A stretch of 64,000 bases of DNA from Planctomycetales bacterium (GTDB taxonomy: Bacteria > Planctomycetota > JAKEIC01): assembly GCA_022614695.1 (NCBI GenBank), contig JAKEIC010000342.1:4012-68011 (forward strand). Direction: 5' to 3'. Position 1 is the first letter of the stretch. Every line of letters starts with the position of its first letter. The notes beneath the pieces were generated by a model. That model made no database searches. It was not told the DNA's origin and worked only from the letters and a program-made list of their open reading frames with translations. Made by a program: the position numbers and the translations under genes. Positions 10,673 through 42,913 of this stretch are shown here, piece by piece.

Positions 10673-13045
10673 GTGAACATCGGGCCCTACGAGGTGATCG
10701 GAGAGCTCGGCCGCGGCGGGATGGGCACCGTCTACCGCGCCCGGGACCCGGAGCTCCGGCGCGAGATCGCGCTCAAGGTGCTCGAGCGCGGCGCCGCCTC
10801 GGACGAGCGCGCCCGGTTCCTCCGCGAGGGACGGACCGGCGCGCGTCTGCGCCACCCGAACATCGTGACGGTCCACGCGGCGGGGGAGGCCGACGGCGCC
10901 GCCTTCATCGCGCAGGAGCTGATCGAGGGCGAGAGCCTCGCCCACGCCCTCGCCCGCGAGCCCTTCCCGCCGGAGCGGGCGGCGCGGCTCGTCGCGACGG
11001 TGGCGCGCGCCCTCGGCCACGCCCACCGCGAGGGCGTGGTCCACCGCGACGTGAAGCCGGGGAACATCCTCCTCGACCGGGCGGGCGAGCCCCACCTCGC
11101 CGACTTCGGTCTCGCGCGGACCGTCGAGGCCTCGGCCGCGCTCTCGCGCTCGGGCCAGGCGATCGGGACCCCGCACTACATGTCGCCCGAGCAGGCGAGC
11201 GGCCGGGTGGGCGTCGTGGACGCCCGCACGGACGTCTGGGGCTGCGGGATGGTCCTCTACGAGTGCCTCGCGGCCGCCCGGCCCTTCGAGGCCGAGGGGC
11301 CCATGGCCGTGATGACGGCGATCGTGCACGAGGAGCCCGTGCCGCTCCGGCGCCGGGTCCCCTCCGTGCCCGCAGCGCTCGACGTGGTCGTCGCACGCTG
11401 CCTCGAGAAGGAGCCGGACCGGCGCTACAGCTCGGCCGACGCCCTGGCCGAGGACCTGGAGAGGTACCTCGGGGGGCGTCCGGTCCTGGCTCGGGCCCCG
11501 GGGCTCGCGGAGAGGTGTCGCCGGCGCGTCCGCCGGAACCCGGCTGCCTACGGTGTCGGCGCGGCGCTCGGCGCCGTGGCGCTCCTCCTCGCCGGGGCGC
11601 TGGCCGTGCGCACGCTCCGCGAACGGGCCGGCCGCGCCGAGGAGGCGCGGCGCGCGGAGGAGCGCGTGCGGGCCCAGGCGGAGGGGTTCCTCGCCGAGGC
11701 GCGGGCGGCGCGGGAGGAGATCCGGCGCCTCGACGAGGCGCTCGCGAAGGTCCCCCGCGTGGAGGATCCCGCCGCCGAGGGGGGGGAGGGCGAGTCCGAA
11801 CGCGCCCGGCTCTGGCAGGAGCGCGAGGAGCAGACCGTGCTCGTCCGGAGCCACTACCTCGCCGTGCGTAGGATCCTCCGGGAGGAGCCCGGGCGGCCCG
11901 AGGCCCGGGAGGCGTCCGAGTCGCTCGGGGCCATCGCCTGGGCGCGACTCGTCGAGGCCGAGGCGGAAGGGAACCGCGAGGCGGCCGCGCGGTTCGAGGC
12001 GCTGCTGCGAGAGGCTGCCCCCGAGCGCTACGCGCAGGAGCTTCGCGGGGACGGCACGCTCACGCTCCGGACCGATCCTCCGGGGGCGGAGGTCGAGGCG
12101 CTCCAGTACGGGGAGGAGGACGGGAAGCTCGTCGCGAGGCCCTGGCGCCCCCTCGGGACGACTCCCATCGAGAAGGCGCCCTTGCCCATGGGCTCGTACC
12201 TCCTCGTCCTCCGGAAGGAGGGCTGCCGCGACGTCCGCTACCCGGTCCTCGTCGAGCGCGGGGAGGACGACGTCTCCCGCGACCCGGTCCCCCTCCTCAC
12301 GGACCGTCAGATCGGCAAGGGCTACGTCTGGGTCCCGCCGGGCGAGGCGATCCTCGGCGGCGACCCGAAGGCGCCCTACGCCTGGTCGCGGCGTAAGCGC
12401 TGGGTCGCGGGGTTCTGCCTCGCGGAGCGTGAGGTCACGTTCCGGGAGTACCGGGAGTTCCTCGGGGCGCTCCTCGCGAGGGGCGCCCCGGCGGCCGAGG
12501 TCGAGGCGCGCTGCCCGCGCCGGAGCGGGGTGGGTGGGGGCTACTGGGGCGTGCGCGATGGCCAGGTCGTCGAGCGCGGGCGCATCCCGGAGGAGTTCCC
12601 CGTCTTCGGCATCTCCTGGGGCGACGCCGACGCCTACGCCCGATGGCGGGGCGAGGTCGAGGGGCGCGGGGCGCGGCTCCCGACCGAGGAGGAGTGGGAG
12701 CGGGCCGCCCGCGGGGCCGACGGCCGGCTCTTCCCGTGGGGGAACGTCTTCCGCTGGGAGCGCGTCGTGGGCGGCCGGAGCCCGGTCCACGGCGAGCGGC
12801 CGCGCCCGAGACCCCCGGGGACCGCGGCCGACGACGTCTCGCCGTTCGGGGTGCGCGACCTCGCCGGGAGCGTCTACGAGTGGTGCGACGACCTGATCTC
12901 CGGCCGCAACCGCGCCGCGCGCGGCGGCGCCTGGGGCCACCTGAACACGAGCTACTTCCGCGCCGCATACCGGAACGGATACGACGAGACGCTCCTCGGG
13001 GACATGCACGGATTCCGGGTGCGGGCGGAGCCGAAGGCCCGATGA
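10673..13045 (+). CDS. full-length Ser/Thr protein kinase - TM - PEGA-like - FGE-sulfatase (SUMF1-like) domain protein (K1)
   Basis: All Hanks motifs are present: GRGGMGTVY, IALKVL, HRDVKPGNILL, DFGLAR, SPEQ. A TM helix follows (AAYGVGAALGAVALLLAGALAV). A PEGA-like segment is LTLRTDPPGAEVE. The FGE-sulfatase-like C-terminus contains GISWGDADAYARW, PTEEEWERAARG and RGGAWG. Confidence 0.9.
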   Translation: MNIGPYEVIGELGRGGMGTVYRARDPELRREIALKVLERGAASDERARFLREGRTGARLRHPNIVTVHAAGEADGAAFIAQELIEGESLAHALAREPFPPERAARLVATVARALGHAHREGVVHRDVKPGNILLDRAGEPHLADFGLARTVEASAALSRSGQAIGTPHYMSPEQASGRVGVVDARTDVWGCGMVLYECLAAARPFEAEGPMAVMTAIVHEEPVPLRRRVPSVPAALDVVVARCLEKEPDRRYSSADALAEDLERYLGGRPVLARAPGLAERCRRRVRRNPAAYGVGAALGAVALLLAGALAVRTLRERAGRAEEARRAEERVRAQAEGFLAEARAAREEIRRLDEALAKVPRVEDPAAEGGEGESERARLWQEREEQTVLVRSHYLAVRRILREEPGRPEAREASESLGAIAWARLVEAEAEGNREAAARFEALLREAAPERYAQELRGDGTLTLRTDPPGAEVEALQYGEEDGKLVARPWRPLGTTPIEKAPLPMGSYLLVLRKEGCRDVRYPVLVERGEDDVSRDPVPLLTDRQIGKGYVWVPPGEAILGGDPKAPYAWSRRKRWVAGFCLAEREVTFREYREFLGALLARGAPAAEVEARCPRRSGVGGGYWGVRDGQVVERGRIPEEFPVFGISWGDADAYARWRGEVEGRGARLPTEEEWERAARGADGRLFPWGNVFRWERVVGGRSPVHGERPRPRPPGTAADDVSPFGVRDLAGSVYEWCDDLISGRNRAARGGAWGHLNTSYFRAAYRNGYDETLLGDMHGFRVRAEPKAR

Positions 13046-15000
13046 ATTCCGCTCCCGCTCCCGGCCCCCCCCGCGCGTACCTCACCGACTTCGGCCTCGC
13101 GAAGTCCGTCGCGACCGGCTCGAAGCTCACGCGCACCGGCCAGGCGCTCGGGACGCCGGCCTACATGAGCCCGGAGCAGGCCCGGGGCGAGGTCTCCTCC
13201 CTCACGCCGGCGACGGACGTCTGGGGCCTGGGCTGCGTGCTCTACGAGATGCTGGCGGGAAGGCAGCCCTTCGAGGCCGAGACAAGCGAGGGGGTGGTGG
13301 TGGGGCGGATCCTCCTGACCGAGCCGCCGCGGCTCCGGACCCGGCGTGGGGACGTCCCGGCAGGGCTCGAACGAGTGGTCCGGGTGACCCTCGCGAAACG
13401 GGGTCAGGACCGCTACCGGGGCTCGGACGCCCTGAGAGACGACCTGGGCCGCGTGCTCGTCGGGAGCCGGCCGCGCGCGCGGCTGCCCGGGTGGCGGCTC
13501 CGCACCGGGGCCGGGCTTGCCGTGGCTGTCGCGGCGGGGCTCGGTATCGCGGCCGCGTGGCCTCGGGAGTTGCCGCCCGCTCCCGCAGTCCGCGCGGGCC
13601 CTGCCTCATCGGAGGCCGATCTCCTCGCGGCTCGGGCCCGAGGGCTCCGGCAGGCGGATCCCCGGGAGGCGGCCAGGCTCCTGGGGCAGGCGCTGTCTGC
13701 AGCGCCCGAGCGGCACGACTGGAGGCTCGAGAGAGGGCTCCTCCTCTGGGCCGTGGGCCAGTGGAAAGCCGCGCGCGAGGAGTGGGGCTCGATCCCCGAG
13801 AGCGCGACCGTCGGGAGCCGCGCGAGGCTCTATCGGGGGCTCGAGGCGCTCTTCCGGCTGGAGGGCGGCGTCTTCCACGCGGAAGAGGGGCGACCCGACC
13901 TCGAAGCGGCGGCGGCGGGGAGGGGTGAGGTGGCCCAGATCGCTAGGGGAGCGCTGGCAACCCTGTCGCACGACTGGTCCGAGGCCCGCAGGAGGCTCCG
14001 GGACGCTCCGGGCTGGGAGGCGGCGCTCCTTCGTGGATACGTGGAAGCGGGAGCCGAGAAGGGGGACGAGGCCGCCGCCGTCCGCGAGTACGGTCGCGCC
14101 CTCGAGGAGGGGATCCCGTTCGCGTGGGTCCTGGCCAGTCGTGGGGCCGTGCGTCACGGCCTCGGAGACCTCCGCGGCGCGCTGGAGGATTACGACGCGT
14201 CGCTCAGGCTCCAGCCCGGCACCCAGGCGGCGCTCTGCAATCGGGGGCTCGCGAAGCGAGACCTCCGAGACCCCCGCGGGGCGCTCGCCGACTACGACGC
14301 CGCGCTCCGGATCTGGCCGGACGACCCGGTCGCCCTCAACGGCCGGGGCGCCGCCCGGGCGCTCCTCGGAGACCTCGTCGGGGCGATCGAGGACCACGGC
14401 GCCGCACTGAGGCTCCGGCCGGACTTCCACGACGCCCGTTCCTACCGCGGCGCCGCGCGGCAGACCCTCGGGGACTACCGCGGGGCCATCGAGGACTACG
14501 ACGCCGCCCTCGCCCTGCTCCCGGACTTCCCCGAGGTGCACCTGAATCGGGGGGGCGTCCGGTGGGTCCTCGGGGACGTCCCTGGGGCGCTCGCTGACTA
14601 CGACGCCGCGCTCAGGCTCCGGCCCGGCTACGACCAGGCCCTCGTGGCTCGGGCGAACGCCCGCCTCGATCTCGGGGAGGATGGCCCGGCACTCGAGGAC
14701 TTCACGGCCGCCGTCGCCGCCGCCCCCACGCCGCGTCTCCACGGGTCGAGGGCCCTGGCGCTCGCGCGGCTCGGCCGGCTCGACGAGGCGCTCGCCGCCG
14801 CGGCGACGGCGCTCTCGATGGACCCGAAGGGACCCCACTACGCGTACGCGGCGCGAGGGCTCGTGAGGCTGCGGCAGGGCCGGCGAGCCGAGGCGCTCGC
14901 CGAGTTCGAGACATTCGACTCGCTCGCGCCTCGGACGGACCCGCTCCGGACGCAGGTCGCCGGTTGGAGGGCGGAGGCGGCAGGCGACGTCCCGAAGTAG
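13042..15000 (+). CDS. N-lobe-less kinase C-lobe - TM - TPR protein, array copy P1
   Basis: The ATG overlaps the K1 stop (ATGA, 13042-13045). The protein starts MNSAPAPGPPRAYLTDFGLAK, that is at kinase subdomain VII. It then has GTPAYMSPEQ, DVWGLGCVLYEML and DRY, followed by a TM helix and 34-aa TPR units (..GALEDYDAALRL.P). Confidence 0.8.
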   Translation: MNSAPAPGPPRAYLTDFGLAKSVATGSKLTRTGQALGTPAYMSPEQARGEVSSLTPATDVWGLGCVLYEMLAGRQPFEAETSEGVVVGRILLTEPPRLRTRRGDVPAGLERVVRVTLAKRGQDRYRGSDALRDDLGRVLVGSRPRARLPGWRLRTGAGLAVAVAAGLGIAAAWPRELPPAPAVRAGPASSEADLLAARARGLRQADPREAARLLGQALSAAPERHDWRLERGLLLWAVGQWKAAREEWGSIPESATVGSRARLYRGLEALFRLEGGVFHAEEGRPDLEAAAAGRGEVAQIARGALATLSHDWSEARRRLRDAPGWEAALLRGYVEAGAEKGDEAAAVREYGRALEEGIPFAWVLASRGAVRHGLGDLRGALEDYDASLRLQPGTQAALCNRGLAKRDLRDPRGALADYDAALRIWPDDPVALNGRGAARALLGDLVGAIEDHGAALRLRPDFHDARSYRGAARQTLGDYRGAIEDYDAALALLPDFPEVHLNRGGVRWVLGDVPGALADYDAALRLRPGYDQALVARANARLDLGEDGPALEDFTAAVAAAPTPRLHGSRALALARLGRLDEALAAAATALSMDPKGPHYAYAARGLVRLRQGRRAEALAEFETFDSLAPRTDPLRTQVAGWRAEAAGDVPK

Positions 15001-15003
15001 GAT
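14998..15003 (+). promoter_or_regulatory. TAGGAT junction hexamer (P1 stop embedded)
   Basis: TAGGATCGCGCC is conserved with the four other junctions. Here it is followed by a copy-specific insert containing a cccgggag direct repeat, TTGACG and GAGAAT. Confidence 0.3.
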
Positions 15004-15016
15004 CGCGCCCCGGGAG

Positions 15017-17215
15017 TTGACGCCCGGGAGAATCCTCGTGGGAACCAAGCCCGACACGGCGATGTCGGCACCCCGCCTCGAGCCCCGCGCCTTCCTCACC
15101 GACTTCGGCCTCGCGAAGTCCGTCGCGACTGGCTCGAAGCTCACGCGCACCGGCCAGGCCCTCGGGACGCCGGCCTACATGAGCCCGGAACAGGCCCGGG
15201 GCGAGGTCTCGTCGCTCACCACGGCGACGGACGTCTGGAGCCTCGGCAGCGTCCTCTTCGAGCTGCTCGCGGGGCGGCCGGCCTTCGAGGGGGAGACCTC
15301 CGCCGCGATCGTCGGGAGGATCCTCCTGGCGGAGCCGACGCGCCTCCGGAGGGTCCGGCCCGACGCCCCGCGTGGGCTCGATCGGGTGGTGCGGGTCGCC
15401 CTCGCCAAGCGGGCGCGGGATCGCTACCGCGACGCCGGCGCCCTGCGGGACGACCTCGCCCGGGTGCTCCGCGGCGAGTCGCCGCGGGCGCGCCCCGCGG
15501 GGACCTGGCGCCGGGTCGCGGTCCCCGTCGCGATCGCCTCGGGGGTGGTCCTCGCCCTCGCGGCCTTCCGCGGGCCGCGCGTCGCCGCACCGGCCGAGCT
15601 GCCCTCCTCCGGGGACTCCGAGGCCGAGAAGCTCGTGGTGGCGAGCCGCGCCCTCCGGCACTCCGACCCGCGGGGGGCCGCCGGGCTCCTCGGGCAGGCC
15701 CTCGCGCTCGATCCGTCGCGACCGGGGCTGCGTCTCGAGCGGGGACTCCTCCTCTGGGCGGTGGGAGAGGGCCCGGCGGCGCGGGAGGAGTGGGGACGCA
15801 TCGCGGCCGGGGTCCCCGAGGCCGCGGCCGCGAGGCTCTACCTCGGCCTCGAGGCCCTCTTCCACGCCGGGGGCGCCGACCCGCGGTTGGCGGAGGCCGA
15901 GGACCACCTGCGGAGGACCGCGGCCGGGGACGGCCCGGAGGCGCTCCTCGCCCGCGCCGCGCTCGCGGCCCTCGATTCCGAGTGGGGCTCGGCCCGCGCG
16001 CTGCTCCGCGACGCGAGGGGATGGGTCGCGGACGCCCTCCGCGGGTACGTGGAGGGGGTGGACCCGGCCGGGGATCCGCAGGCCGCGGCGCGCGCCGACA
16101 CGGCGGCGCTCGAGCAAGGCATCCCGTTCGCGTGGATCTACTGCAACCGGTCCGCCGCGCGGACACTGCTGGGCGACCCGCGCGGGGGACTCGAGGACGC
16201 CGAGCGGAGCCTCGCGCTCAGCGCCGGCATCGTCGAGGCGTACGCGAATCGCGGGGAGGCCCGGTCGCGCCTGGGGGACCGCGCCGGGGCGGTCGAGGAC
16301 TTCGGGAAGGTCCTCGACCATCGGCCGCGATCCTGGGAGGCCTGGACGAGGCGAGGCACCCTCCGGTACGAACTGCGGGACCTCCGCGGCGCCCTCGAGG
16401 ACTTCTCGGCGGCCCTCCGCCTGCGGCCGGACGACCCGGAGCGCCTCAACGACCGCGCCGGCGTCCTGCACGATCTCGGGGAGTACGACCGGGCCCTGGC
16501 CGACTGCGAGGCCGCGCTTCGGCTCCGACCCGAGTACCCCGACGCCCTGGCCAACCGGGGCGCGGTCCGCCTGGGGCTCAGCGACCCCCGGGGCGCGGTC
16601 GCGGACTTCGCGGCCGCCCTGCGGCTGCGTCCGGACATCCCCGAGATCCTGGTCAACCGGGGCATTGCCCGGCATGCGATGAGCGACCTCCGCGGGGCGG
16701 CCGAGGACTTCGACTCGGCCCTCCGGCTCCGGCCGGAGTATGACCAGGCCCACGCGGCGCGTGGGATCGTCCGGCGAGACCTCGGCGACCCGTCGGGGTC
16801 CGTCGAGGACCTCACCGCCGCCCTCGCCGTCCGCGCCGACGACCCGGAGTTCCTCGGCGCCCGGGGCCTCGCGCGGCGGGACCTCGGGGATCTCCCCGGG
16901 GCCCTCTCGGACCTGGATCGCGCGGTCGCCCGGGACGAGCGGAACCCGACGTACCGGAGCAACCGCGCCCTCACGCTCGCGCAGCTCGGCCGGCACGACG
17001 AGGCGCTCGCCGAGGCCGCGCGGGCCCTCGCGGCGGATCCGCAGGGCCCCTACTATGCCCATGCCGCCCGGGGGCTGGTGTTCCTTCGCCAAGCCGAACT
17101 CGCGAAAGCCCTCGCCGAATTCGAGCGCTTCGAGGCGCTCGCGGCGCCAGGGGACATGCTGCGGAAGGAGGTCGCCGCCTGGAGAAGAGAAGCGGCCGGA
17201 GGCCCCCAGAAGTAG
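15017..17215 (+). CDS. N-lobe-less kinase C-lobe - TM - TPR protein, array copy P2
   Basis: Same architecture as P1. Possible starts are TTG 15017, GTG 15038 and ATG 15062. The ATG at 15062 aligns with the internal ATG of P3-P5. Confidence 0.8.
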   Translation: MTPGRILVGTKPDTAMSAPRLEPRAFLTDFGLAKSVATGSKLTRTGQALGTPAYMSPEQARGEVSSLTTATDVWSLGSVLFELLAGRPAFEGETSAAIVGRILLAEPTRLRRVRPDAPRGLDRVVRVALAKRARDRYRDAGALRDDLARVLRGESPRARPAGTWRRVAVPVAIASGVVLALAAFRGPRVAAPAELPSSGDSEAEKLVVASRALRHSDPRGAAGLLGQALALDPSRPGLRLERGLLLWAVGEGPAAREEWGRIAAGVPEAAAARLYLGLEALFHAGGADPRLAEAEDHLRRTAAGDGPEALLARAALAALDSEWGSARALLRDARGWVADALRGYVEGVDPAGDPQAAARADTAALEQGIPFAWIYCNRSAARTLLGDPRGGLEDAERSLALSAGIVEAYANRGEARSRLGDRAGAVEDFGKVLDHRPRSWEAWTRRGTLRYELRDLRGALEDFSAALRLRPDDPERLNDRAGVLHDLGEYDRALADCEAALRLRPEYPDALANRGAVRLGLSDPRGAVADFAAALRLRPDIPEILVNRGIARHAMSDLRGAAEDFDSALRLRPEYDQAHAARGIVRRDLGDPSGSVEDLTAALAVRADDPEFLGARGLARRDLGDLPGALSDLDRAVARDERNPTYRSNRALTLAQLGRHDEALAEAARALAADPQGPYYAHAARGLVFLRQAELAKALAEFERFEALAAPGDMLRKEVAAWRREAAGGPQK

Positions 17216-17218
17216 GAT
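17213..17218 (+). promoter_or_regulatory. TAGGAT -10-like hexamer on the P2 stop, 6 nt before GTG 17225 (leaderless geometry)
   Basis: Read directly: aagTAGGATcgcgccGTGcgg. Confidence 0.4.
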
Positions 17219-17224
17219 CGCGCC

Positions 17225-19204
17225 GTGCGGGGCGCCGCGGCACCGATGACGTCCGGCCGCCCCGTCGAGCCCCGCGCCTTCCTCACCGACTTCGGCCTCG
17301 CGAAGGCCGTCGCGACGGGCTCGAGATTCACGAGGTCCGGCGACGCCCTGGGGACCCCGGCCTACATGTCCCCCGAGCAGGCGCGCGGAGAGGCGTCGTC
17401 GCTCACGCCCGCGACGGACGTCTGGTCGCTCGGAGGGACGCTCTACGAGATGCTGGCCGCTCGGCCGCCGTTCCCGGGGGAATCGGCGGCCGCGATCGTG
17501 GGCGCGCTCCTCACGCGGGAACCCCGGCGGATCCAACGGGACCGGCCGGACGTCCCGCGCGCCCTGGATCGGGTCCTCCGGTGCTCGCTCGCGAAGGCGG
17601 CGCGCGCGCGGTACGCCGACGCCGGGGCTGTCCGCGACGACCTCGACCGGGTCCTCCGGGGCGAGCCGCCCCGGGCGAGGCTCCCGGGCTCGGGGCGCCT
17701 CCAGGCCGCCGCGGCCGTCCTCGCCGCCGGGCTCGCCGCCTGGGTCGCGCTCCTCGTCCTCCCACGCGGGGAGGGCGACTCCCCTTCGCCCGTCTCTCGG
17801 CCCGCCTCCTCGGCGGCCGAGGCTCTCGCGGCGCGGGCCTCCGGCCTCCGGGAGGGCGACCCGGCCGCCGCGGCGCGGCGCCTCGCGGAGGCCCTTGCCC
17901 TGGAGCCGGCGCGTCCGGCGTGGCGCCTCGAACTCGGGCTGCTCCTCTGGGCGCTCGGCGATGGCGAGGCGGCCCGGGCGGAGTGGGGCGGGGTCCCGCG
18001 AGAGGCGCCCGAGGGCCGGCGCGCGAGGCTCTACCGGGCTCTGGAGCCGCTCTTCCAGCTGCGGGAGCCCGGTTCCGCCTCGGGCGCGGACGCGGCCGCG
18101 CTCGGGGAGCTCGCCACCGGGGGCGACGCGGAGGCGCGCCTGGCCCGCGCGGCGCTCGCGTGCTCCTCGAGCCGCTGGCCCGAGACCCGGGCGGCTCTCG
18201 GGGCGCTGGAGGGCTGGGAGCCCGCCCTCCTGCGAGGCTACGTCGAGGCGATGGACCCTCGCGGCGACCCGACGGCGGCCGTCCGTGAGCTGTCCGCCGC
18301 GCTCACCGCCGGGATCCCGTTCGCTTGGGTCTACAGCCTCCGCGGGATGGCCCGCGAGGCCGCGGGCGATCTCCGTGGCGCGGAGGAGGACCAGACGGCG
18401 GCGCTCCGGCTGCTGCCGGCGTTCCCGGATGCGCTCACGAATCGGGGAACCGCCCGCTTGGGGCAGGGCCGGATCGCCGACGCGATCGCGGATCACACCG
18501 AGGCGCTGCGATACCGTCCCCGGGACGCCGCCGCGCTCAACAACCGCGCGAACGCCCGGCGGGCCGCGGGGGACTTGCGAGGGGCGGTCGCGGACTACTC
18601 CGCCGCGCTGGCGATCGAGCCCCACAACCCCGAGATGCTGAACAACCGGGGCCTCGCCCGGGCGATGCTGGGCGAATCGCGGGAGGCCTTCGCCGACGCC
18701 GACGCGGCCGTCCGTCTCCGGCCGGGGATGGCGGGAGCGTGGAACACGCGGGGCCTCGCGCGCTGGGGGCTCGGCGACTCCGCCGGGGCGATCGAGGACT
18801 ATTCGGCGGCCCTGCGCCTGGAGCCGCGGCGGCCGACGACCCTCCTGAGCCGCGCGCTGGCGAGGCGCGACCGCGGCGACCGCGAGAGCGCCCTCCGCGA
18901 CGTGGAGGAGGCGCTCGCCCTCGACCCCTCGCGGGCGACCGCCCACAGCAATCGGGCGCTCCTCCTGGCGGAGGTCGGCCGCGTGGGGGAAGCCCTCGCC
19001 AGCGCCGATCGGGCCCTCGCGATGGACCCGACGGGTGCGTACTACGCCCACGCCGCGCGCGGGCTGGTGCTGCTCCGCGAGGGAAGGAACGCCCAAGCCC
19101 TCGACGAGTTCGGGAAGTTCGATTCGCTCGCGGCGCCGGGGGACCCGCTCCGGAGGGACGTCGCCGTCTGGAAGGCGGAGGCGGCCGGGGGCGTCCCGAA
19201 GTAG
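17225..19204 (+). CDS. N-lobe-less kinase C-lobe - TM - TPR protein, array copy P3
   Basis: MRGAAAPMTSGRPVEPRAFLTDFGLAK..GTPAYMSPEQARGE..DVWSLG.., then a TM helix and TPRs. An alternative ATG lies at 17246. Confidence 0.8.
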   Translation: MRGAAAPMTSGRPVEPRAFLTDFGLAKAVATGSRFTRSGDALGTPAYMSPEQARGEASSLTPATDVWSLGGTLYEMLAARPPFPGESAAAIVGALLTREPRRIQRDRPDVPRALDRVLRCSLAKAARARYADAGAVRDDLDRVLRGEPPRARLPGSGRLQAAAAVLAAGLAAWVALLVLPRGEGDSPSPVSRPASSAAEALAARASGLREGDPAAAARRLAEALALEPARPAWRLELGLLLWALGDGEAARAEWGGVPREAPEGRRARLYRALEPLFQLREPGSASGADAAALGELATGGDAEARLARAALACSSSRWPETRAALGALEGWEPALLRGYVEAMDPRGDPTAAVRELSAALTAGIPFAWVYSLRGMAREAAGDLRGAEEDQTAALRLLPAFPDALTNRGTARLGQGRIADAIADHTEALRYRPRDAAALNNRANARRAAGDLRGAVADYSAALAIEPHNPEMLNNRGLARAMLGESREAFADADAAVRLRPGMAGAWNTRGLARWGLGDSAGAIEDYSAALRLEPRRPTTLLSRALARRDRGDRESALRDVEEALALDPSRATAHSNRALLLAEVGRVGEALASADRALAMDPTGAYYAHAARGLVLLREGRNAQALDEFGKFDSLAAPGDPLRRDVAVWKAEAAGGVPK

Positions 19205-19207
19205 GAT
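19202..19207 (+). promoter_or_regulatory. TAGGAT -10-like hexamer on the P3 stop, 6 nt before GTG 19214
   Basis: Read directly: aagTAGGATcgcgccGTGcgg. Confidence 0.4.
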
Positions 19208-19213
19208 CGCGCC

Positions 19214-21412
19214 GTGCGGGGCGACGCGGCGCCAATGACGTCTGGTCCCCCCCTCGAGCCTCGCGCCTTCCTCACCGACTTCGGCCTGGCGAAAGCCGTC
19301 GCGACCGGCTCGAAGCTGACTCGGACTGGCGAGGCGCTCGGCACGCCGGCCTACATGTCCCCCGAGCAGGCGCGTGGGGAGATCTCCTCGCTCAGCCCTG
19401 CGACGGACGTCTGGAGCCTCGGCTGCGTCCTGTACGAGCTGCTCGCCTCCCGGCCCCCGTGGCAGGGGGGAACGACGGCAGCCGTCATCGCGGGGGTGCT
19501 CGCTCGCGAGCCCGTCCCGATCCGCAGGGTCCGATCTGACGTTCCGCCGGGCGCGGAGTCGGTCCTGATTCAGACCTTGGCGAAGGCGCAGAGAGACCGC
19601 TATCGCGATGCGGGCCCGCTGCGCGACGACCTCGAGCGGTTGCTCCGCGACGAGCGGCCCCTGGCGCGTCGGCCCGGTCGTCGCCGGCGCCTCGTGCTGG
19701 GACTCGGCGCCGCGACCGGCGCGGCGGCGTGCGTCGTGGCCGCCGCCCTGCCCGGGCCGCCGGCGCTCCCGGCATCGTTGGCCCCTCCGCCGACGGCGGG
19801 GCGCGCGGAGAGCATCGTCCAGGCGGCCCTGCGGGTCCGTCCCGCGGACCCGGCGAAGGCCGCCGGACTCCTCGCGGAGGCGCTGGCACTCGAGCCCGCC
19901 TCAGCGGTCTGGCGGCGGGATCGAGCCGACTGTCTCCGCGAGTGCGGGGAGTGGAGGGAGGCGGTGGCCGAATACGACCGGGTCCTGGCGACCCTCCCCG
20001 GCGACCTCGCGGCCCGGTTCGGCCGAGGGCTCGCGAGGTGGCTCGGAGTCTCGACGGGGGACCGCACGCTCGGGAACCCCAAGCCCGACCTCGGGGACGT
20101 CGGCGCCCGCGACCCGGGCTGGCAAGGAGCCCTCTCCCGGGCCATCCTGGCGCACGACGCGGGACGCTGGGAGGACGCTGAGCGCGAGATCGCCTCCGCG
20201 CGCGATCGCACGGCGGCGCTGGGGATCAGCGCGCTGCTCCGCCACCACGGGGGGACCGGAGACCTGGAGGCACAGCGGCGCGCCATCCAGGAGTTCACCC
20301 AGGCGATCGAGCAGGGACCGCCCCAGCGGTGGCTCTACTACGAGCGAGGACACGCCAAGGAGATCGCGGCCGACCTGCGCGGGGCCCTCGAGGACTATAC
20401 GGCCTCGATCGAGCTGTCCGCGGAGTACAGCTCTGCCCGCATCCGACGCGCCCTCCTGCGGGCAAAGCTCGGGGACGCGCCCGGATCGGAGGAGGACTTC
20501 CAGGTCGCCTTCCGGAACACGACTCCCGATGCCGGACTCCACATCGAGAGGGCCTTCGCTCGCGTGACCTTGGGGCGCCTCGCCGAGGCGCTGGGGGACT
20601 ATGACGCCGCCCTCCGCCTGGATCCGGACAACGCCGAGGCCTATCACGGCCGCTCGAGCGTCCGCAAGGACCTGGGGGATCTCCGGGGCGCCGTCGAAGA
20701 TTGCTCCGCGGCGATCCGTCTCCGTCCCGCCTTTCCTGCAGCCTTGAGCAACCGCGGGGCGTGGAGGATGGCTCTCGACGAACCCCGCTCCGCGCTCGAG
20801 GACTTCGAGGCCTCGCTCCGCCTCCGGCCGAACGATCCGATCGCTCGGTTCAACCGGGGAAACGCGCGGTACGCCCTCGGGGAGCTGGCGGGTGCGGTCG
20901 ACGACTACACGGCCGTGATCCCCATGCGTCCGGACTCCCCGGAGCCGCTGAACAATCGTGGCAATGCCCGCCGCTGGCTCGGTGACCTGGCGGGCGCGAT
21001 CGAGGACTACGGCGCCGCGCTCCGCGTCCAGCCCGGGTTCATGCCGGCGCTCCGCAATCGGGCGGAGGCGCGGGAGAGGCTCGGAGACCTCTCCGGGGCA
21101 CTCGCCGACGCGGAGGCCGTGCTGGCGTCGCGTCCGGGATTCCCTCCGTGCCTCGCGACGCGGGCGCTCGTCCTCGCCCGCTCGGGGCGGCTGGACGAGG
21201 CGCTCACGGAGGCGGCCCGGGCCGTGGCGGCGGGCCCGGCGGCTGCGCCCCATGCCCACGCCGCCCGCGGCTTGGCCCTGCTCCGTCAGGGGAGGCTCGC
21301 GGACGCCGTGGCCGAGTTCGAGGAGTTCGAGTCGCACGCAGGCCGCTACGACCCTGTCCGCCCGGACGCCGCGACTTGGAAGGCGGAGGCCCTCCAGGGC
21401 GCCTCGAAGTAG
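19214..21412 (+). CDS. N-lobe-less kinase C-lobe - TM - TPR protein, array copy P4
   Basis: Same N-terminal block as the other copies. The ectodomain has diverged most from the others. An alternative ATG lies at 19235. Confidence 0.8.
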   Translation: MRGDAAPMTSGPPLEPRAFLTDFGLAKAVATGSKLTRTGEALGTPAYMSPEQARGEISSLSPATDVWSLGCVLYELLASRPPWQGGTTAAVIAGVLAREPVPIRRVRSDVPPGAESVLIQTLAKAQRDRYRDAGPLRDDLERLLRDERPLARRPGRRRRLVLGLGAATGAAACVVAAALPGPPALPASLAPPPTAGRAESIVQAALRVRPADPAKAAGLLAEALALEPASAVWRRDRADCLRECGEWREAVAEYDRVLATLPGDLAARFGRGLARWLGVSTGDRTLGNPKPDLGDVGARDPGWQGALSRAILAHDAGRWEDAEREIASARDRTAALGISALLRHHGGTGDLEAQRRAIQEFTQAIEQGPPQRWLYYERGHAKEIAADLRGALEDYTASIELSAEYSSARIRRALLRAKLGDAPGSEEDFQVAFRNTTPDAGLHIERAFARVTLGRLAEALGDYDAALRLDPDNAEAYHGRSSVRKDLGDLRGAVEDCSAAIRLRPAFPAALSNRGAWRMALDEPRSALEDFEASLRLRPNDPIARFNRGNARYALGELAGAVDDYTAVIPMRPDSPEPLNNRGNARRWLGDLAGAIEDYGAALRVQPGFMPALRNRAEARERLGDLSGALADAEAVLASRPGFPPCLATRALVLARSGRLDEALTEAARAVAAGPAAAPHAHAARGLALLRQGRLADAVAEFEEFESHAGRYDPVRPDAATWKAEALQGASK

Positions 21413-21415
21413 GAT
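21410..21415 (+). promoter_or_regulatory. TAGGAT -10-like hexamer on the P4 stop, 6 nt before GTG 21422
   Basis: Read directly: aagTAGGATcgcgtcGTGcgc. Confidence 0.4.
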
Positions 21416-21421
21416 CGCGTC

Positions 21422-23896
21422 GTGCGCGGCGACGCGGCACCGATGACATCCGGCCCCACAGTCGAGCCTCGCGCCTTCCTCGCCGACTTCGGCCTCGCGA
21501 AAGCCGTCGCGACCGGCTCGAAGCTGACCCGCACTGGCCAGGCCCTCGGCACCCCGGCGTACATGTCACCCGAGCAGGCGCGGGGGGAGGTCTCCGCGCT
21601 CACCCCCGCGACGGACCTGTGGAGTCTCGGGTGCGTCCTCTACGAGATGCTCGCCAGCCGCCCACCGTTCGAGGGCGACACGGACGCCGCTGTGGTGGGC
21701 AACGTCATATTCGCGGAATCGCCGAGGCTGCGGACCCTCCGGGCAGACGTCTCGCAGGGCCTCGAGTGCGTCGTGCGGGTATGCCTTGGGAAACGCGTCC
21801 AGGACCGGCACACGGAGGCGGGGGCGCTGAGGGACGACCTCGACCGCGTGCTCCGAGGCGAGAGGCCGACGGCGCGTCCCGACGGGTCATGGGTGCGGAA
21901 GGCCGCGGTGGCCGCCCTCTGCGTGGCCTCGGTCTCGTGGGCCGCTGCCTACACCTTGCGGGGGCGGGGGCCGGAGGGACTCCCCGCGACAGCCTCCTCC
22001 TCGCCTTCGGCCGCGGAGGCGCTCGCGACCAGGGCCCGGGCCCTGCGGCAGTCGGACCCCCGCCGGGCGGCCGAGGTCCTCCGGGCGGCGCTCGAACGGG
22101 AGCCCTCGCGGGACGACCTGCGGCTAGAGAGGGGCCTCCTCCTCTGGGCGGTCGGAGAGAACGCGGAGGCCCGCGAGGAGTGGGGCCGGATCGGGTACGG
22201 GTCCTCCGAAGGGACGCAGGCGAAGCTCTTCCTCGCCCTCGAAGTGTTCTTCCGGATGGCGGGAGCCGAATCGCGGCCGCACCTCGTGGCCCTGAGGGAG
22301 GCCCCGGGCCGGGTGGGAAGTCTCGCTCGCGGGGCCGTCCGGGTGCTCGACAGTGAGTGGTCGCGGGCCCGGGAGGACCTCAGGGGAGTCGAGGGCTGGG
22401 AGGCGCACCTGCTCCGGGGCTACATCGAGAGTTGGGACCCCGCGGGCGACCGCGCGGCGGCGGTGCGGGCGTACGGGTCCGCACTCGACTCCTGGATACC
22501 CTTCGCCTGGGCCTGGAACAACCGCGGCGTCGCGAGGCGGGCGATCGGGGAGGACGCGGGGGCGGTGGCGGACTACAGCCGTGCCCTCCAGCTGGACCCC
22601 CGCTACGCGGAGGCCTGGAACAACCGCGGCAACGCGAAGGGGCGCCTCGGGGACCACGCCGCGGCTGTGGCGGACCTGGACCGCGCCCTCGAGCTCAACC
22701 CGCGGTACGCGGATGCCTGGAACAACCGCGGCGCTGCGAAGCGGGCCCTCGGGGACTACGCGGGGGCTGTGGCCGATCTCGACCGCGCCCTCGAGCTCGA
22801 CCCGCGGTACGCGACGACTTGGCACAACCGCGCTGTCGCGAAGCAGGCCCTCGGCGACCTCGCGGGAGCGATCGCGGACTACGGACGAGGCATCGAGCTG
22901 GACCCGCGGCTCCCGGCGGCCTGGAGCAACCGCGCTGCCGCCAAGGCCGCCCTCGGCGACCTGGCGGGGGCGATGGCAGACTGGGACCAAACCCTCGGGA
23001 TCGACCCGCAGTTCGCGGAGGCGTGGAACAACCGCGGCGGAGCGAAGCGGCTCCTCGGCGACCCCGCCGGGGCCCTGGCGGACCTGGACCATGCCCTCGG
23101 GCTCGACCCGCGGTCCGCGTGGACTTGGCACCACCGTGGACTCGCGAAGCGCGACCTCGGGGACCTCGCGGGGGCGGTGGCGGACCTGGACCGCGCCCTC
23201 GAGCTCGACCCGCGGAACGCGGGGGTCTGGAACAACCGCGGCCTCGCGAAGCGGGACCTCGGGGACCTCGCAGGGGCGGTCGCGGACCTGGACCGCGCCC
23301 TCGAGCTCGACCCGCGGCTCGCGGTATCCTGGTCGAACCGCGGCGCGGCGAAGCGGCGACTCGCGGACCACGCGGGAGCCGTCGCGGATCTCGATCGCGC
23401 CCTCGAGCTCGATCCGCGGAACGCGGCAGGCTGGGCGGACCGCAGCCTCGCGAAGCGGGACCTCGGGGACCCCGCAGGGGCGGTCACGGATGGCAACCGC
23501 TCCCTCGAGCTCGACCCGCGGAACGCGGCGGCCTGGAACATTCGCGGAGTCGCGAAGAGGGACCTCGGAGACCTCGCGGGCGCCCTCGAGGACCTCTCGA
23601 CCGCGATCCGCCTGGCGCCGGAGGGCCCATTCGGCTACAGCAACCGCGGTCTCGTGTTCGCGGGTCTCGGCCGCCTCGACGAGGCCCTCGCCGACGCCGA
23701 GAAGGCCCTCTCGATGGACCCGAAGGGGCCCTACTACGCCTACGCGGCCCGGGGGCTCGTGTTCATCCGGCAGGGGAAGCACGCGGCGGCCCTTGCCGAT
23801 CTCGAGCGCTTCGAGTCGCTCGCGATACCGGCCGACCCGCTCCGGAAGGACGTCGCCGCCTGGAAGGCGGAGGCGGCGCGGGGAGCGCCGAAGTAG
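21422..23896 (+). CDS. N-lobe-less kinase C-lobe - TM - long TPR array protein, array copy P5
   Basis: Same N-terminal block, here with AFLADFG. The ectodomain contains about 12 consecutive 34-aa TPRs. An alternative ATG lies at 21443. Confidence 0.8.
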   Translation: MRGDAAPMTSGPTVEPRAFLADFGLAKAVATGSKLTRTGQALGTPAYMSPEQARGEVSALTPATDLWSLGCVLYEMLASRPPFEGDTDAAVVGNVIFAESPRLRTLRADVSQGLECVVRVCLGKRVQDRHTEAGALRDDLDRVLRGERPTARPDGSWVRKAAVAALCVASVSWAAAYTLRGRGPEGLPATASSSPSAAEALATRARALRQSDPRRAAEVLRAALEREPSRDDLRLERGLLLWAVGENAEAREEWGRIGYGSSEGTQAKLFLALEVFFRMAGAESRPHLVALREAPGRVGSLARGAVRVLDSEWSRAREDLRGVEGWEAHLLRGYIESWDPAGDRAAAVRAYGSALDSWIPFAWAWNNRGVARRAIGEDAGAVADYSRALQLDPRYAEAWNNRGNAKGRLGDHAAAVADLDRALELNPRYADAWNNRGAAKRALGDYAGAVADLDRALELDPRYATTWHNRAVAKQALGDLAGAIADYGRGIELDPRLPAAWSNRAAAKAALGDLAGAMADWDQTLGIDPQFAEAWNNRGGAKRLLGDPAGALADLDHALGLDPRSAWTWHHRGLAKRDLGDLAGAVADLDRALELDPRNAGVWNNRGLAKRDLGDLAGAVADLDRALELDPRLAVSWSNRGAAKRRLADHAGAVADLDRALELDPRNAAGWADRSLAKRDLGDPAGAVTDGNRSLELDPRNAAAWNIRGVAKRDLGDLAGALEDLSTAIRLAPEGPFGYSNRGLVFAGLGRLDEALADAEKALSMDPKGPYYAYAARGLVFIRQGKHAAALADLERFESLAIPADPLRKDVAAWKAEAARGAPK
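22511..23734 (+). repeat. in-frame 102-bp tandem repeat (about 12 units) encoding TPRs inside P5
   Basis: The unit start (g/a)c(c/t)tgg(a/c)acaaccgcgg recurs at 22511, 22613, 22715, 22817, 22919, 23021, 23123, 23225, 23327, 23429, 23531 and 23633. Several neighbouring units are near-identical (..GDLAGAVADLDRALELDPRNA..WNNRGLAKRDL). Confidence 0.8.
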
Positions 23897-23899
23897 GAT
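23894..23899 (+). promoter_or_regulatory. TAGGAT -10-like hexamer on the P5 stop, 6 nt before the ggt GTG 23906
   Basis: Read directly: aagTAGGATcgcgccGTGcgcggc. It matches the intra-array junctions for about 27 nt. Confidence 0.4.
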
Positions 23900-23905
23900 C
23901 GCGCC

Positions 23906-25648
23906 GTGCGCGGCCACGCCACGCTCGCGCTCCTCGCGGCCCTCGCCTGCTCGCGACCCGAGCCGGCAGCCGTCCCCGCGGCCGCGGCTGTCTCCGCGCC
24001 CGCCCCCCTCCGCACCGACGCCGCCGTCGCGACGGCCGAGCCGTTCGCCACGCACGCCGCCGCCGACGTGCTCGCCGACGGCGGGAACGCCGTGGATGCG
24101 GCCGTCTGCGCGGCGCTCACGCTCGCCGTCACCTACCCCTCTGCCGGGAACCTCGGGGGCGGGGGGTTCCTCGTCACGTGGGACCCCGGCACCCGCGAGG
24201 CGCACGCGCTCGACTTCCGCGAGACGGCGCCGGCGGCCGCGACTCGGGACATGTACCTCGGGCCGGACGGCAATCCCGACCCGGAGAAGAGCCTCGAAGG
24301 TCACCTCGCGGTCGGGGTCCCGGGCTCGGTCCGCGGGCTCTCCGCGGCGCACCGGAAGTTCGGTCGGCTCCCGTGGAAGAGCCTCGTCCTCCCCGCGATC
24401 CACCTCGCGGAGGAGGGGATCCCCGTCTCGGCCGGGCTCGCGGGCGAGTTCAAGCGCCACGCCGAGAAGCTCGCGAGGTATCCGGCGAGTGCGGCGGCGT
24501 TCCTCAAGGCCGACGGCTCGCCCCACGGGAAGGGCGACTCGTGGAAGCAGCCCGACCTCGCGAGGACCCTCCGCCGGATCGCCGAGGGCCCCTCGGACTT
24601 CTACACGGGCGAGACCGCCCGCCTCATCGTCGAGGAGATGAAGCGCGGGGGGGGGATCCTCGACGTCCACGACCTCTCGTGCTACTCGGCTGCCTGGCGC
24701 GACCCGATCCGGGTGCCGTACCGCGGGCGCGAGGTGGTCTCGATGCCGCCGCCGAGCAGCGGAGGCGTCTGCGTCGGGATGATCCTGCGGGTCCTCGAGG
24801 GCTGGACGCCCGCCGAGATCCGGCTCGACGACCCGGCCGGCGCGCACCGGTACGTCGAGGCGGCGCGGCGCGTCTACGCGGACCGGTCGCAGCACCTCGG
24901 GGACCCGGACCAGTGGCGGGTGCCGCTGGCGTGGCTCCTCTCGCCCGCGTACGCCGCCGAGCGGCGGGCGACGATCCGGATGGACGGGGCGACGGGGTCG
25001 CGTAACGTCGCGCCGGGCGCCGAGCCGAGGCGCGAGGGGGTCCACACCACCCACCTCTCTGTCCTCGACTTCGACGGCCGGGCCGCCTCGCTCACGACCA
25101 CGATCAACTCGGGCTACGGATCGCACGTGACCGTCGGCGGGGCCGGGTTCCTCCTCAACAACGAAATGGACGACTTCTCGGCGAAGCCCGGCGCCCCGAA
25201 CCTCTACGGGCTCGTGGGCGGCGAGGCGAACGCGGTCGCCCCGGGGAAGCGCATGCTCTCGTCCATGGCGCCGACCGTGGTCCTCGAGGACGGCCGCGCG
25301 CGGCTCGTCGTCGGGACCCCCGGCGGCTCGACGATCATCACGAGCGTCTTCCAGGTAGTGACTCGCGTCGTGGATCAGGGCGAGTCCCTGGAGGCGGCCG
25401 TCGCAGCCCCCCGGCTCCACCACCAGTGGCTCCCGGACAAGCTCTTCCACGAGAAGGGCCGGGCGCCCCCCCCGGCCCTCCTCGAGGCGCTCGCGAAGCT
25501 CGGCCACACGCTCGAGCCCCGCCCCGAGATCGGGGACGTCTGCGCGATCGCGGTGGACGGGGCCGGCCGCGCCACCGCCGTCGCCGACCCGCGGGGACGG
25601 GGGCTCGCGAGGACGCTCCCGGCCTGGTCTCGCCCCGAGACCAAGTGA
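23906..25648 (+). CDS. ggt: gamma-glutamyltransferase
   Basis: It has a signal peptide. GGT blocks are present: GNLGGGGF, the autoprocessing-site region TTHLSVLD, NNEMDDFS and SSMAPT. Confidence 0.9.
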   Translation: MRGHATLALLAALACSRPEPAAVPAAAAVSAPAPLRTDAAVATAEPFATHAAADVLADGGNAVDAAVCAALTLAVTYPSAGNLGGGGFLVTWDPGTREAHALDFRETAPAAATRDMYLGPDGNPDPEKSLEGHLAVGVPGSVRGLSAAHRKFGRLPWKSLVLPAIHLAEEGIPVSAGLAGEFKRHAEKLARYPASAAAFLKADGSPHGKGDSWKQPDLARTLRRIAEGPSDFYTGETARLIVEEMKRGGGILDVHDLSCYSAAWRDPIRVPYRGREVVSMPPPSSGGVCVGMILRVLEGWTPAEIRLDDPAGAHRYVEAARRVYADRSQHLGDPDQWRVPLAWLLSPAYAAERRATIRMDGATGSRNVAPGAEPRREGVHTTHLSVLDFDGRAASLTTTINSGYGSHVTVGGAGFLLNNEMDDFSAKPGAPNLYGLVGGEANAVAPGKRMLSSMAPTVVLEDGRARLVVGTPGGSTIITSVFQVVTRVVDQGESLEAAVAAPRLHHQWLPDKLFHEKGRAPPPALLEALAKLGHTLEPRPEIGDVCAIAVDGAGRATAVADPRGRGLARTLPAWSRPETK

Positions 25649-33866: not shown

Positions 33867-33878
33867 CGGCCGGTCAAC

Positions 33879-33907
33879 TTGTCGAGCCCTCCCCAGTCCG
33901 CTACCCT
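33879..33907 (+). promoter_or_regulatory. TTGTCG-N17-TACCCT promoter-like element, 8 nt before GTG 33916
   Basis: Read directly. The geometry would give a leaderless or near-leaderless K2 transcript. Confidence 0.3.
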
Positions 33908-33915
33908 CGACTCCG

Positions 33916-42704: not shown

Positions 42705-42913
42705 GGGTGCGCGTGCCGAGCGTGTGGAGAGCCCCCGGGTCCGGTGGTAGACTCCCGCCCCCCCGCGGGGCGAGTGCGGGGAGGTGACGCATCGCCGATC
42801 GCGAGACATTCTCCCGGCGCGCGACGGACCGGCTGCGGGCGCTCGCCCGCTCCATCCAGCAGAAGGAGGAGGTCGAGCACTCCTTCGCGGCCACCCGGCG
42901 CAAGCAGTTCAAG

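Follow-up and report, generated by a model that had tools for sequence, protein, structure and literature searches.

In a 64,000-nt stretch of a planctomycetal metagenome-assembled genome (MAG), six genes, here called P1 to P6, encode membrane receptors that have only the back half of a protein kinase domain in the cytoplasm (Table 1); the whole stretch (Planctomycetales bacterium, GenBank assembly GCA_022614695.1, contig JAKEIC010000342.1, positions 4,012 to 68,011) is referred to as the window, and MAG sequence is the evidence throughout. A previous reading of the DNA, made without database searches (the sequence-only reading), had described five consecutive half-kinase genes on one strand at 13042-23896, and the coordinates of the open reading frames (ORFs) bear this out; the count of five for the window has to be raised, as a sixth copy, on the minus strand, was found by tblastn with the kinase domain of the neighbouring complete kinase K1 and by a six-frame search. 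The six receptors are selected and non-autonomous, and they belong to an unannotated family (ΔN receptors in the following) which, to judge from a census of protein clusters, is large, lineage-specific and undescribed. For catalysis they would need a partner, and it is possible, at somewhat less than an even chance, that P1-P6 are functional co-receptors that act in trans with a catalytic kinase.

The products of P1-P5 are built alike: a short leader is followed by the half-kinase, one transmembrane (TM) helix and an ectodomain of tetratricopeptide repeats (TPRs). The half-kinase reads (E)PRAFL(T/A)DFGLAK(S/A)VATGS(K/R)(L/F)TR(T/S)G.ALGTPAYMSPEQARGE...DVWSLG...DRY, and what is retained in all six copies is β8, the DFG motif, the activation segment and αF-αI. 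The Pkinase profile (PF00069) matches P1-P5 from position 139 of 263, that is, from β8 just ahead of DFG (Pfam), with scores of 49.7-58.9 bits against a cut-off of 31.7 bits, which confirms that only subdomains VII-XI are present. The elements of these subdomains (DFG, activation loop, APE/SPE, αF Asp, αH-αI Arg) are all found; of those that define a Hanks kinase further upstream, the Gly-rich loop, the β3 Lys (VAIK) and the αC Glu are lacking in P1-P5, and there is no HRD motif in P1-P6. As every catalytic element of the N-half is absent, the fragments are unable to transfer phosphate alone, as the sequence-only reading had maintained. Its statement that no N-lobe is encoded in any frame also holds: tblastn with the K1 kinase domain and a profile hidden Markov model (HMM) of the N-half, run over six frames with --max, detected none in the window beyond those of the complete kinases K1, K2 and K3, and none lies upstream of the ΔN genes at four other loci of the source species (L001-L003, L084). 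The ectodomains of P1-P5 comprise 6 to more than 10 TPR units (TPR_1/TPR_2, E-values 1e-26 to 1e-85, Pfam), and the P copies show a single Kyte-Doolittle peak at about residues 155-185 with an Arg-rich stretch just before it.

The genes do not begin exactly at DFG, as had been thought; the leaders of the P genes are 10-25 residues long, and an ATG common to P1-P5 is placed 11-13 codons ahead of FLTDFG. Within the array, P1-P5 are consecutive and on the same strand. K1 and P1 have 4 nt in common, the stop of the one and the start of the other (the ATGA at 13042-13045 is present as reported), and the later gaps measure 9 to ~60 nt. Gene P6 is located directly downstream of a TrkA_C gene; in its upstream region (48004-48100) an in-frame ATC stands 4 codons ahead of AFLTDFG and is preceded by a GAAGGGG run, which is part of a GAGCCCC-TCGAA-GGGGCTC hairpin just 3′ of the TrkA_C gene.

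Table 1. Half-kinase receptor genes, complete kinases and array elements in the window
Feature	Coordinates	Strand	Description
K1	10673..13045	+	complete Hanks kinase with PEGA and FGE-sulfatase; Pkinase 1-260/263 (Pfam)
P1	13042..15000	+	ΔN half-kinase receptor, 652 aa; half-kinase part 13078-13458; TM ~13504-13560
P2	15038..17215	+	ΔN half-kinase receptor, 725 aa from GTG 15038 (alternative ATG 15062); half-kinase part 15089-15469; TM ~15515-15571
P3	17225..19204	+	ΔN half-kinase receptor, 659 aa; half-kinase part 17279-17656; TM ~17705-17761
P4	19214..21412	+	ΔN half-kinase receptor, 732 aa; half-kinase part 19268-19645; TM ~19694-19750
P5	21422..23896	+	ΔN half-kinase receptor, 824 aa; at least 10 TPR units; half-kinase part 21476-21853
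P6	46177..48033	-	sixth ΔN half-kinase receptor; half-kinase part 47626-48003; TM ~47524-47580
K2	33823..36612		complete kinase; Pkinase match from profile position 1
K3	58081..61041	-	complete kinase; Pkinase match from profile position 1
Junction repeat TAGGATCGCG(C/T)CGTGCG(G/C)GGC(G/C)ACGC	17213..17238	+	again at 19202-19227, 21410-21435 and 23894-23919 (P5/GGT); partial at 14998-15009
Gamma-glutamyltranspeptidase (GGT)	23906..25648	+	Pfam G_glu_transpept, E=5.9e-168

The sequence-only reading had named an assembly artefact and decay of the copies as outcomes that would speak against it, and neither was found. A second assembly, GCA_973348535.1, contains the same array at 99.4% identity, and the copies, ~55% identical in nucleotides in the ectodomain, are too divergent for mis-assembled repeats; repeat collapse or a chimera in the MAG is therefore a practically negligible explanation, even if many family members are 'partial' at contig ends and P5 is not the same in the two assemblies. 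In P5 the window (22600-23500) has one TPR unit (34 aa, 102 nt) more than the second assembly (L088 8986-9954), a difference that may represent copy-number polymorphism or repeat collapse.

All six copies align in frame over their whole length (620-820 residues); the indels correspond to whole TPR units, and there is no frameshift or stop. By the NG86 method the ratio of nonsynonymous to synonymous divergence (dN/dS, ω) is 0.19-0.55 in the kinase half and 0.07-0.35 in the segment from DFG to APE, where the synonymous divergence (dS) still amounts to 0.14-0.64, which indicates that conservation of the activation segment is due to selection on the protein and not to recent gene conversion. Outside the 5′ block dS is 0.6-1.3 by NG86, and it is saturated in most pairs under a codon model fitted by maximum likelihood (ML), with which ω is 0.01-0.13 in 13 of 15 pairs; the other two ML values, 0.86 and 0.90, are outliers of the optimisation and at odds with NG86. 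The activation segment of P6, compared with the other copies, has an ω of 0.21-0.35. P1-P6 are under purifying selection and are not decaying copies, and the six are old.

The family extends far beyond the window. When 1.84 billion cluster representatives (clusters at 50% identity) were queried with a profile built on the cytoplasmic part and the best 150 were examined, 90 clusters had a single DFGLAK in the first 60 residues and no HRD, so that the search for DFG-start kinases elsewhere, suggested with the sequence-only reading, met with success; counted by match position, 95 hits among the best 150 are ΔN-like, and their median length of 634 aa identifies them as complete receptors. Full-length relatives account for ~12 clusters among the same 150 as opposed to ~90 of the ΔN kind (about 1:8), a ratio that fits the earlier suggestion of many sensors feeding few enzymes. 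P1 and P2 are themselves members of the searched library (P2 is identical to library protein P0269). Accessions of the source MAG were present in 9 of 19 sampled ΔN clusters, and by extrapolation from these the source genome appears to hold on the order of 40 diverged ΔN paralogues, several of which are adjacent pairs (for example, MCI0342457 and MCI0342458); the remaining ΔN clusters derive mainly from GCA_040961615.1, and a few from ENA, JGI and Logan contigs. The four other loci of the source species have contexts unrelated to the window: L001 adjoins truD, and L084 has a gene for an N-half (see below) and more ΔN genes. A word-indexed protein search, which listed only proteins shorter than about 1.7 times the query length and is thereby biased to fragments and short ORFs, was not used for the census. 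Small genes of the TfoX_N or DUF1801/OmdA type are found in or beside ΔN arrays of two genomes (L084 10618-10953; L089 2179-2787; L086 7636-8154).

In NCBI, most ΔN receptors are named 'tetratricopeptide repeat protein' (MCI0343436.1, MCI0339702.1, MCI0342457.1 and others), the truncated ones 'protein kinase'; P1, which is identical to MCI0343436.1, is entered as 'tetratricopeptide repeat protein [Planctomycetales bacterium]' and lies on a 74-kb contig. The half-kinase architecture is thus invisible in current public annotation. A scan of a genome collection with the family alignment, in which generic patterns (LGTPxYMSP, WxLGxVxYE) were used, returned only ordinary kinases of 37-51% identity among the matches listed, and a metagenome scan with a DNA motif for DFGLAK[SAT]VATG returned one unrelated full-length kinase only. 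Full-text searches of the literature found no description of a bacterial half-kinase family with such an architecture, in keeping with the sequence-only reading, which knew of none.

Conservation within the family is concentrated in the part of the kinase that surrounds the activation loop. Among 86 ΔN representatives, taken from clusters that are at most 50% identical overall, the D, F and G of DFG are each invariant (86/86), as are the Thr at +14 and the Gly at +17 from the DFG Asp, GTP, the P+1 Thr, YMSPEQ and its SPE; +16 is Thr in 82 and Ser in 3, the αF Asp is kept in 82, the β8 Leu in 84 and the β8 Phe in 71. The activation loop has the same length in 87 of 90 representatives, none of which contains an HRD motif. 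In an alignment of 27 sequences all 20 invariant columns fall between DFG and the start of αF (residues 22-65), and the leaders are variable and eroded. The activation segment matches that of Mycobacterium tuberculosis PknB (phmmer, E = 7.6e-24) with KLTRTG aligned on SVTQTA. The conserved activation-loop threonines to which the sequence-only reading had drawn attention (86/86 and, as Thr or Ser, 85/86) thereby come to lie on the VTQT of PknB, on its activating phospho-sites Thr171 and Thr173. PknB is activated by phosphorylation of these two residues, and the phosphorylated loop recruits the FHA protein GarA.

An AlphaFold model of residues 1-170 of P4 gives the αEF/αF-αI bundle a predicted local distance difference test (pLDDT) score of 84-97, and residues 13-32 (β8, DFG and the first half of the loop) one below 50. 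The modelled bundle superimposes on the C-lobes of PknB and PknA with a root-mean-square deviation of 1.3-2 Å over ~110 residues, or ~40% of the domain (Foldseek, TMt ~0.38). According to the model, the best-conserved piece would be the one that is not expected to be ordered alone, and its low pLDDT is as might be expected for a segment that becomes ordered on a partner.

This pattern bears on the idea that only the TM helix and the TPR ectodomain function, as a periplasmic scaffold or binding protein, while the kinase remnant is a passive anchor stub that aids insertion or stability. The name most of these proteins carry at NCBI would suit such a role, as would the variable and eroded leaders and ectodomains that vary by whole TPR units, also between the two assemblies of the species; but the most conserved part is the activation segment and not the ectodomain, and it has the lowest ω in spite of clear synonymous divergence, which makes an inert stub improbable.

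Where the half-kinases came from can be traced through full-length relatives outside the window. Three of these, P0122, P0275 and P0404, have the same activation loop and membrane-proximal ectodomain as P1-P5, and P0404 also the same C-terminal tail; they keep a complete cytoplasmic Pkinase domain, whereas P1-P6 do not. The sequence-only reading had noted that K2 and K3 share the kinase-TM-TPR plan of the array genes. K1, K2 and K3 are not their full-length counterparts: over the shared kinase half K1-K3 are only 42-50% identical in amino acids to the P proteins, as compared to 62-78% among the P proteins themselves, and P0122, P0404 and P0275 are the true counterparts. P1-P6 probably descend from full-length kinase-TM-TPR receptors in which the stretch from β1/β3 to β7 was lost, and with it Gly loop, β3 Lys, αC Glu and HRD loop.

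The leaders of ΔN proteins are heterogeneous, and three kinds can be recognised. The first is a remnant of the native N-terminus and Gly loop, as in L084-C1 (MSAGPSESPAELGRGEPAG followed by AFLADFG) and L001-C2 (...SEPGRGGSTTVYGGG followed by RPHVVDFG), to be compared with the N-termini of P0139 (MNVGPYEVLSELGRGGFATVY) and K1 (VNIGPYEVIGELGRGG); the second, represented by one case, is a remnant of the tail of the catalytic loop (P0007, MNPPNILPDRESRPHVVDFG); the third is the tail of a lineage-specific insert between β7 and β8, P0005 and P0290 resembling the 36-residue insert of the full-length kinase P0349. In a rough neighbour-joining (NJ) tree the ΔN genes with PHVVDFG group with full-length PHVVDFG kinases, which suggests that the N-half was lost more than once; motif sharing and this crude tree are the grounds for what seems to be a repeated loss.

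The array itself arose by tandem duplication of a unit that reaches from the ΔN leader to ~16 nt into the GGT gene downstream. A junction repeat stands after P2, P3 and P4, in part after P1, and at the junction of P5 and GGT; it holds an AGGA motif resembling a Shine-Dalgarno (SD) sequence and a GTG, which at the last junction is the start codon of GGT, so the first ~16 nt of GGT and its ribosome-binding region belong to the duplication unit. Because the unit extends into GGT, P3-P5 gained an in-frame MRG(D/A)A extension, with the AGGA/GTG initiation region of GGT ahead of their older ATG. P2, P3, P4, P5 and GGT are all in one frame with single TAG codons between them, and this common frame can be attributed to duplication of one unit with indels in multiples of 3.

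Three other interpretations of this arrangement were considered and rejected. The first would have the ΔN genes originate by 5′ truncation and use of the GGT start; that start accounts only for the extra MRG(D/A)A codons of P3-P5, and the older ATG and leader of the P genes trace to a native kinase N-terminus or to the β7-β8 insert. The second is a read-through polyprotein from P2-P5 to GGT, the fused product of which would be topologically impossible, while the shared frame follows from the duplication. The third is amber suppression or recoding of TAG: no suppressor tRNA was found in the window or the loci, and TAG is an ordinary, frequent stop codon in the window. On these grounds (TAG usage, no suppressor tRNA, impossible topology), the TAG arrangement is denied any significance for recoding.

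The copies are most similar at their ends. The first ~180 nt are on average 79-90% identical, the last ~240 nt 66-73% and the middle 42-60%; hence the high similarity that the sequence-only reading had seen at both ends is upheld for the 5′ end and for the divergence of the ectodomains, but the 3′ end falls short of it. Conserved ends around a variable middle in partial tandem copies, together with a lower dS in the 5′ block, might be thought to mark silent 3′ cassettes which, in the manner of pilE/pilS, switch the sensor domain of an expressed full-length kinase, the ends serving as homology arms. However, the 5′ blocks are pairwise 78-94% identical with many scattered synonymous differences and no long identical tract; the copies are furnished with start codons and SD-like sites of their own, and selection on them is at the protein level. 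The own starts and the absence of long identical tracts argue against a recombination cassette, and so does the window, in which an expression locus whose arms would match is missing (identity of K1-K3 in the 5′ block is 34-67%) and the Pfam scans run on its ORFs detected no recombinase. The chance that the copies are such cassettes is very slight.

How, then, might receptors with half a kinase act? In the co-receptor reading introduced above, a full-length kinase of the family, for example, P0122 or P0404, would engage the ultra-conserved activation segment of a ΔN receptor and phosphorylate its two conserved threonines, the equivalents of PknB Thr171/Thr173; the occupancy of many different periplasmic TPR ectodomains would in this way be read out by few enzymes, and the phosphorylated loop may be used for docking or, as a decoy, compete for trans-activation of the kinase. 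A family kinase such as P0122/P0404 is a likelier partner than K1, for docking on which the ATGA overlap is the single argument. The identity of the partner, the phosphorylation of the loop and a positive or a negative effect on signalling are things we infer rather than observe.

Several points weigh against this reading. K1, the sole kinase that is physically coupled to the array, is outside the P family. P6 has no in-frame ATG, GTG or TTG ahead of DFG, its first canonical start being the ATG of YMSPEQ (47916). Part of the family is decaying: three ΔN paralogues of the source genome are interrupted (L001 5345-7312, L002 438-2234 and L003 10001-11689, with products P0001, P0007 and P0022), the first two by an in-frame TAG in the ectodomain and P0022 by a break of some kind. 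One of the TAGs occupies the position of a Tyr codon, which fits a simple nonsense change, and the stops are probably real, as contigs of either assembly carry the truncations; the three interrupted paralogues indicate that the family evolves by birth and death. Finally, a pure substrate, scaffold or decoy role would leave the invariance of the DFG Asp, Phe and Gly, of β8, the P+1 Thr and the αF Asp unexplained. In intact kinases, the roles of DFG, β8, the P+1 Thr and the αF Asp involve the N-half and the catalytic loop. The suggestion made with the sequence-only reading, that the receptors are co-receptors or decoys, is thus supported as far as selection and conserved threonines go, but a pure decoy or substrate would not require these residues to be invariant.

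The same interruptions, and the missing start codon of P6, could be taken to mean that all of these genes are decaying pseudogenes, left over from tandemly duplicated receptor kinases through internal deletions, that have remained open only because stops are rare at 75% GC. The GC content of the window is indeed ~75% and long spurious ORFs are common in it. But six copies with saturated synonymous sites have kept frame and homology over 620-820 residues at an ω well below 1, the motif set is invariant through 90 diverged clusters, and the ATG and SD-like sites are conserved, so that general decay is very improbable. The antisense ORFs are very long, for instance one of 1464 aa at 14702-19096 (-) opposite P1-P3; with 75% GC they are not considered genes, and real frames have a G+C content at third codon positions (GC3) of ~0.88-0.98.

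A strong rival to the co-receptor reading, even if we consider it rather unlikely, is that of a natural split kinase, the ΔN receptor being the C-half and the N-half being supplied in trans, so that a complete active site is rebuilt on association, with HRD from one chain and DFG and the loop from the other. The donor would be a soluble N-half protein or a domain-swapped full-length relative with a long flexible β7-β8 linker. Candidates for such a soluble protein came from the word-indexed search mentioned above, biased to short proteins as it is, when it was queried with the N-half of P0122: P0139 (MCI0340424.1), a 167-aa ORF consisting of an N-half only, is encoded in the same genome as the window (L084 10001-10504), and P0140, a 163-aa ORF of the same kind, in GCA_040961615.1 (L085). 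Gly loop (GRGGFATVY in P0139), VALK Lys, αC Glu and HRDVKPGN are intact in both; each ORF closes with a tail rich in Pro and Ala and a TAG, and the two are orthologous (89% nucleotide identity, dN/dS 0.16, dS 0.34). Downstream of P0139 in the source genome come first a TfoX_N gene and next two genes for ΔN receptors; in L085 (2228-3115) the N-half is separated by a single TAG from a C-half (PFLADFGLAKSVATGSRLTRTG...) that continues its frame and is devoid of a canonical start codon of its own. The TAG that closes the N-half ORF appears to be conserved between the two genomes (L084, L085), and the arrangement in L085 could reflect stop read-through, non-canonical initiation or a recent nonsense mutation. 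The subclade to which P0139 and P0140 belong ("NILxGxK plus insert") also includes intact full-length genes, P0390 and P0349, which have inserts of 21 and 36 residues, respectively, where β7 and β8 would be split.

That the MAG of P1 has a gene of its own for an N-half, with the catalytic residues intact, a dN/dS of 0.16 and ΔN genes shortly downstream, agrees with a split kinase, and so does a C-half in frame after one TAG. The inserts of 21-36 residues in the closest full-length relatives lie exactly at the split point, and the leaders of P0005 and P0290 look like remnants of a P0349-type insert. The residues that would matter only in an assembled site are invariant or nearly so (DFG, P+1 Thr, αF Asp, β8 Phe and Leu; for the counts see above), and in the model of the half by itself β8, DFG and the loop come out disordered. 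A split kinase accounts better than the co-receptor model for this invariance, for the N-half ORF, the inserts and the disorder. To be set against it, only one N-half gene was seen per genome versus ~40 ΔN genes, the N-half ORF could be a kinase truncated by a nonsense mutation, and in the source genome a TfoX_N gene intervenes between P0139 and the next ΔN gene, which has its own leader with a Gly-loop remnant; moreover, the association of the halves is hypothetical, and no natural Hanks kinase divided at the β7-β8 point is known to us. A more specific form of this rival, in which one soluble N-half (or the loosely tethered N-half of an insert-bearing relative) would be shared by ~40 membrane C-half receptors and form an active site only when recruited by a sensor, is marginally more doubtful still.

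The best matches of the ΔN half in sequence and fold are TM Hanks kinases of the PknB type (M. tuberculosis PknB and PknA, Staphylococcus aureus Stk1), with 35-38% identity. These likewise join a kinase part in the cytoplasm through one TM helix to a repeat sensor on the outside, and have the DFG...SPEQARG segment with two Thr at the VTQT position; in contrast, the ΔN proteins are without ~140 residues (β1-β7 with Gly loop, β3 Lys, αC Glu and the HRD/catalytic loop), and their ectodomain is made of TPRs, that of PknB of PASTA domains. Receptors in which a sensor ectodomain is joined to a non-catalytic cytoplasmic part that modulates catalytic members in trans are TrkB.T1, ErbB3 and the BIR-type receptors of plants; to our knowledge these have a full pseudokinase domain or none, never just the half from DFG to αI, and are separate inventions. 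Greatwall/MASTL, with its non-conserved middle region, and engineered split kinases illustrate that the domain tolerates a long unstructured break near DFG and the activation segment. The break in MASTL is reminiscent of P0349 and P0390, with their β7-β8 inserts of 21-36 residues, and of the layout of N-half and C-half in L085, but in MASTL both parts are one polypeptide. We know of no natural kinase with separately encoded halves or with many alternative C-halves.

Closer to the organism, membrane serine/threonine kinases (STKs) of Planctomycetota carry periplasmic TPR or WD40 arrays, have grown in number by lineage-specific and tandem duplication and possess complete Pkinase domains; the text of the survey nowhere mentions truncated or partial kinase domains (PMC11032199). 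The ΔN receptors share with these STK-TM-TPR receptors, of which P0404, P0275 and P0122 are ordinary members, the phylum, the kinase-TM-TPR plan and the mode of duplication; they differ in lacking a complete Pkinase domain, and they outnumber the full-length forms ~8:1 among the closest clusters. Bacterial pseudokinases, seven families of which (ActPs1-3, GLW, CP1, DYD, DLHK) have been reviewed, none without an N-lobe and none reported from Planctomycetota, retain both lobes and have had catalytic residues replaced, loss of the αG helix being the most extreme change reported (PMC12599244). Like these, and like MviN and EssB/YukC, which are also non-catalytic Hanks relatives assumed to be scaffolds or regulators, MviN being phosphorylated by PknB and then recruiting an FHA protein (PMC12599244), the ΔN proteins lack at least one catalytic residue (β3 Lys and HRD Asp are deleted, the DFG Asp is kept). 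Unlike them, they have lost half of the fold, namely the N-lobe, αD, αE and the catalytic loop, and their DFG Asp is invariant; the families are set apart here by description only. The ΔN receptors are best described as non-catalytic, kinase-derived receptors, pseudokinase-like in function yet outside a definition that asks for a bilobal fold.

As to the other genes of the window, the ORF of K1 is open from 10301, but its homology to P0139 (MNVGPYEV...) begins at GTG 10673 (VNIGPYEV), which is likely the start of K1; the annotated start is probably ~124 codons too early. On the plus strand, 38214-43609 encode a 1496-aa protein with five DUF4388 domains and, directly after it, a Ser/Thr phosphatase of the SpoIIE/PP2C type (42788-43609), so that K2 and P6 may have a neighbour in phospho-signalling here. 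A scan for promoters and terminators between 9 and 27 kb found nothing, but at 75% GC such a scan is uninformative.

Pseudokinase biology has been built on bilobal folds that lose residues; in the ΔN receptors the opposite is seen, as half of the fold is gone and what is left has its catalytic and regulatory residues frozen through ~90 diverged clusters. It follows that half of a kinase can by itself be a signalling module on which selection acts. Bacteria may use kinase fragments that are complemented or phosphorylated in trans to link many sensors to few enzymes, and if complementation proves true, the family would represent combinatorial signalling with one engine and many sensors and offer a natural blueprint for the engineering of split kinases.

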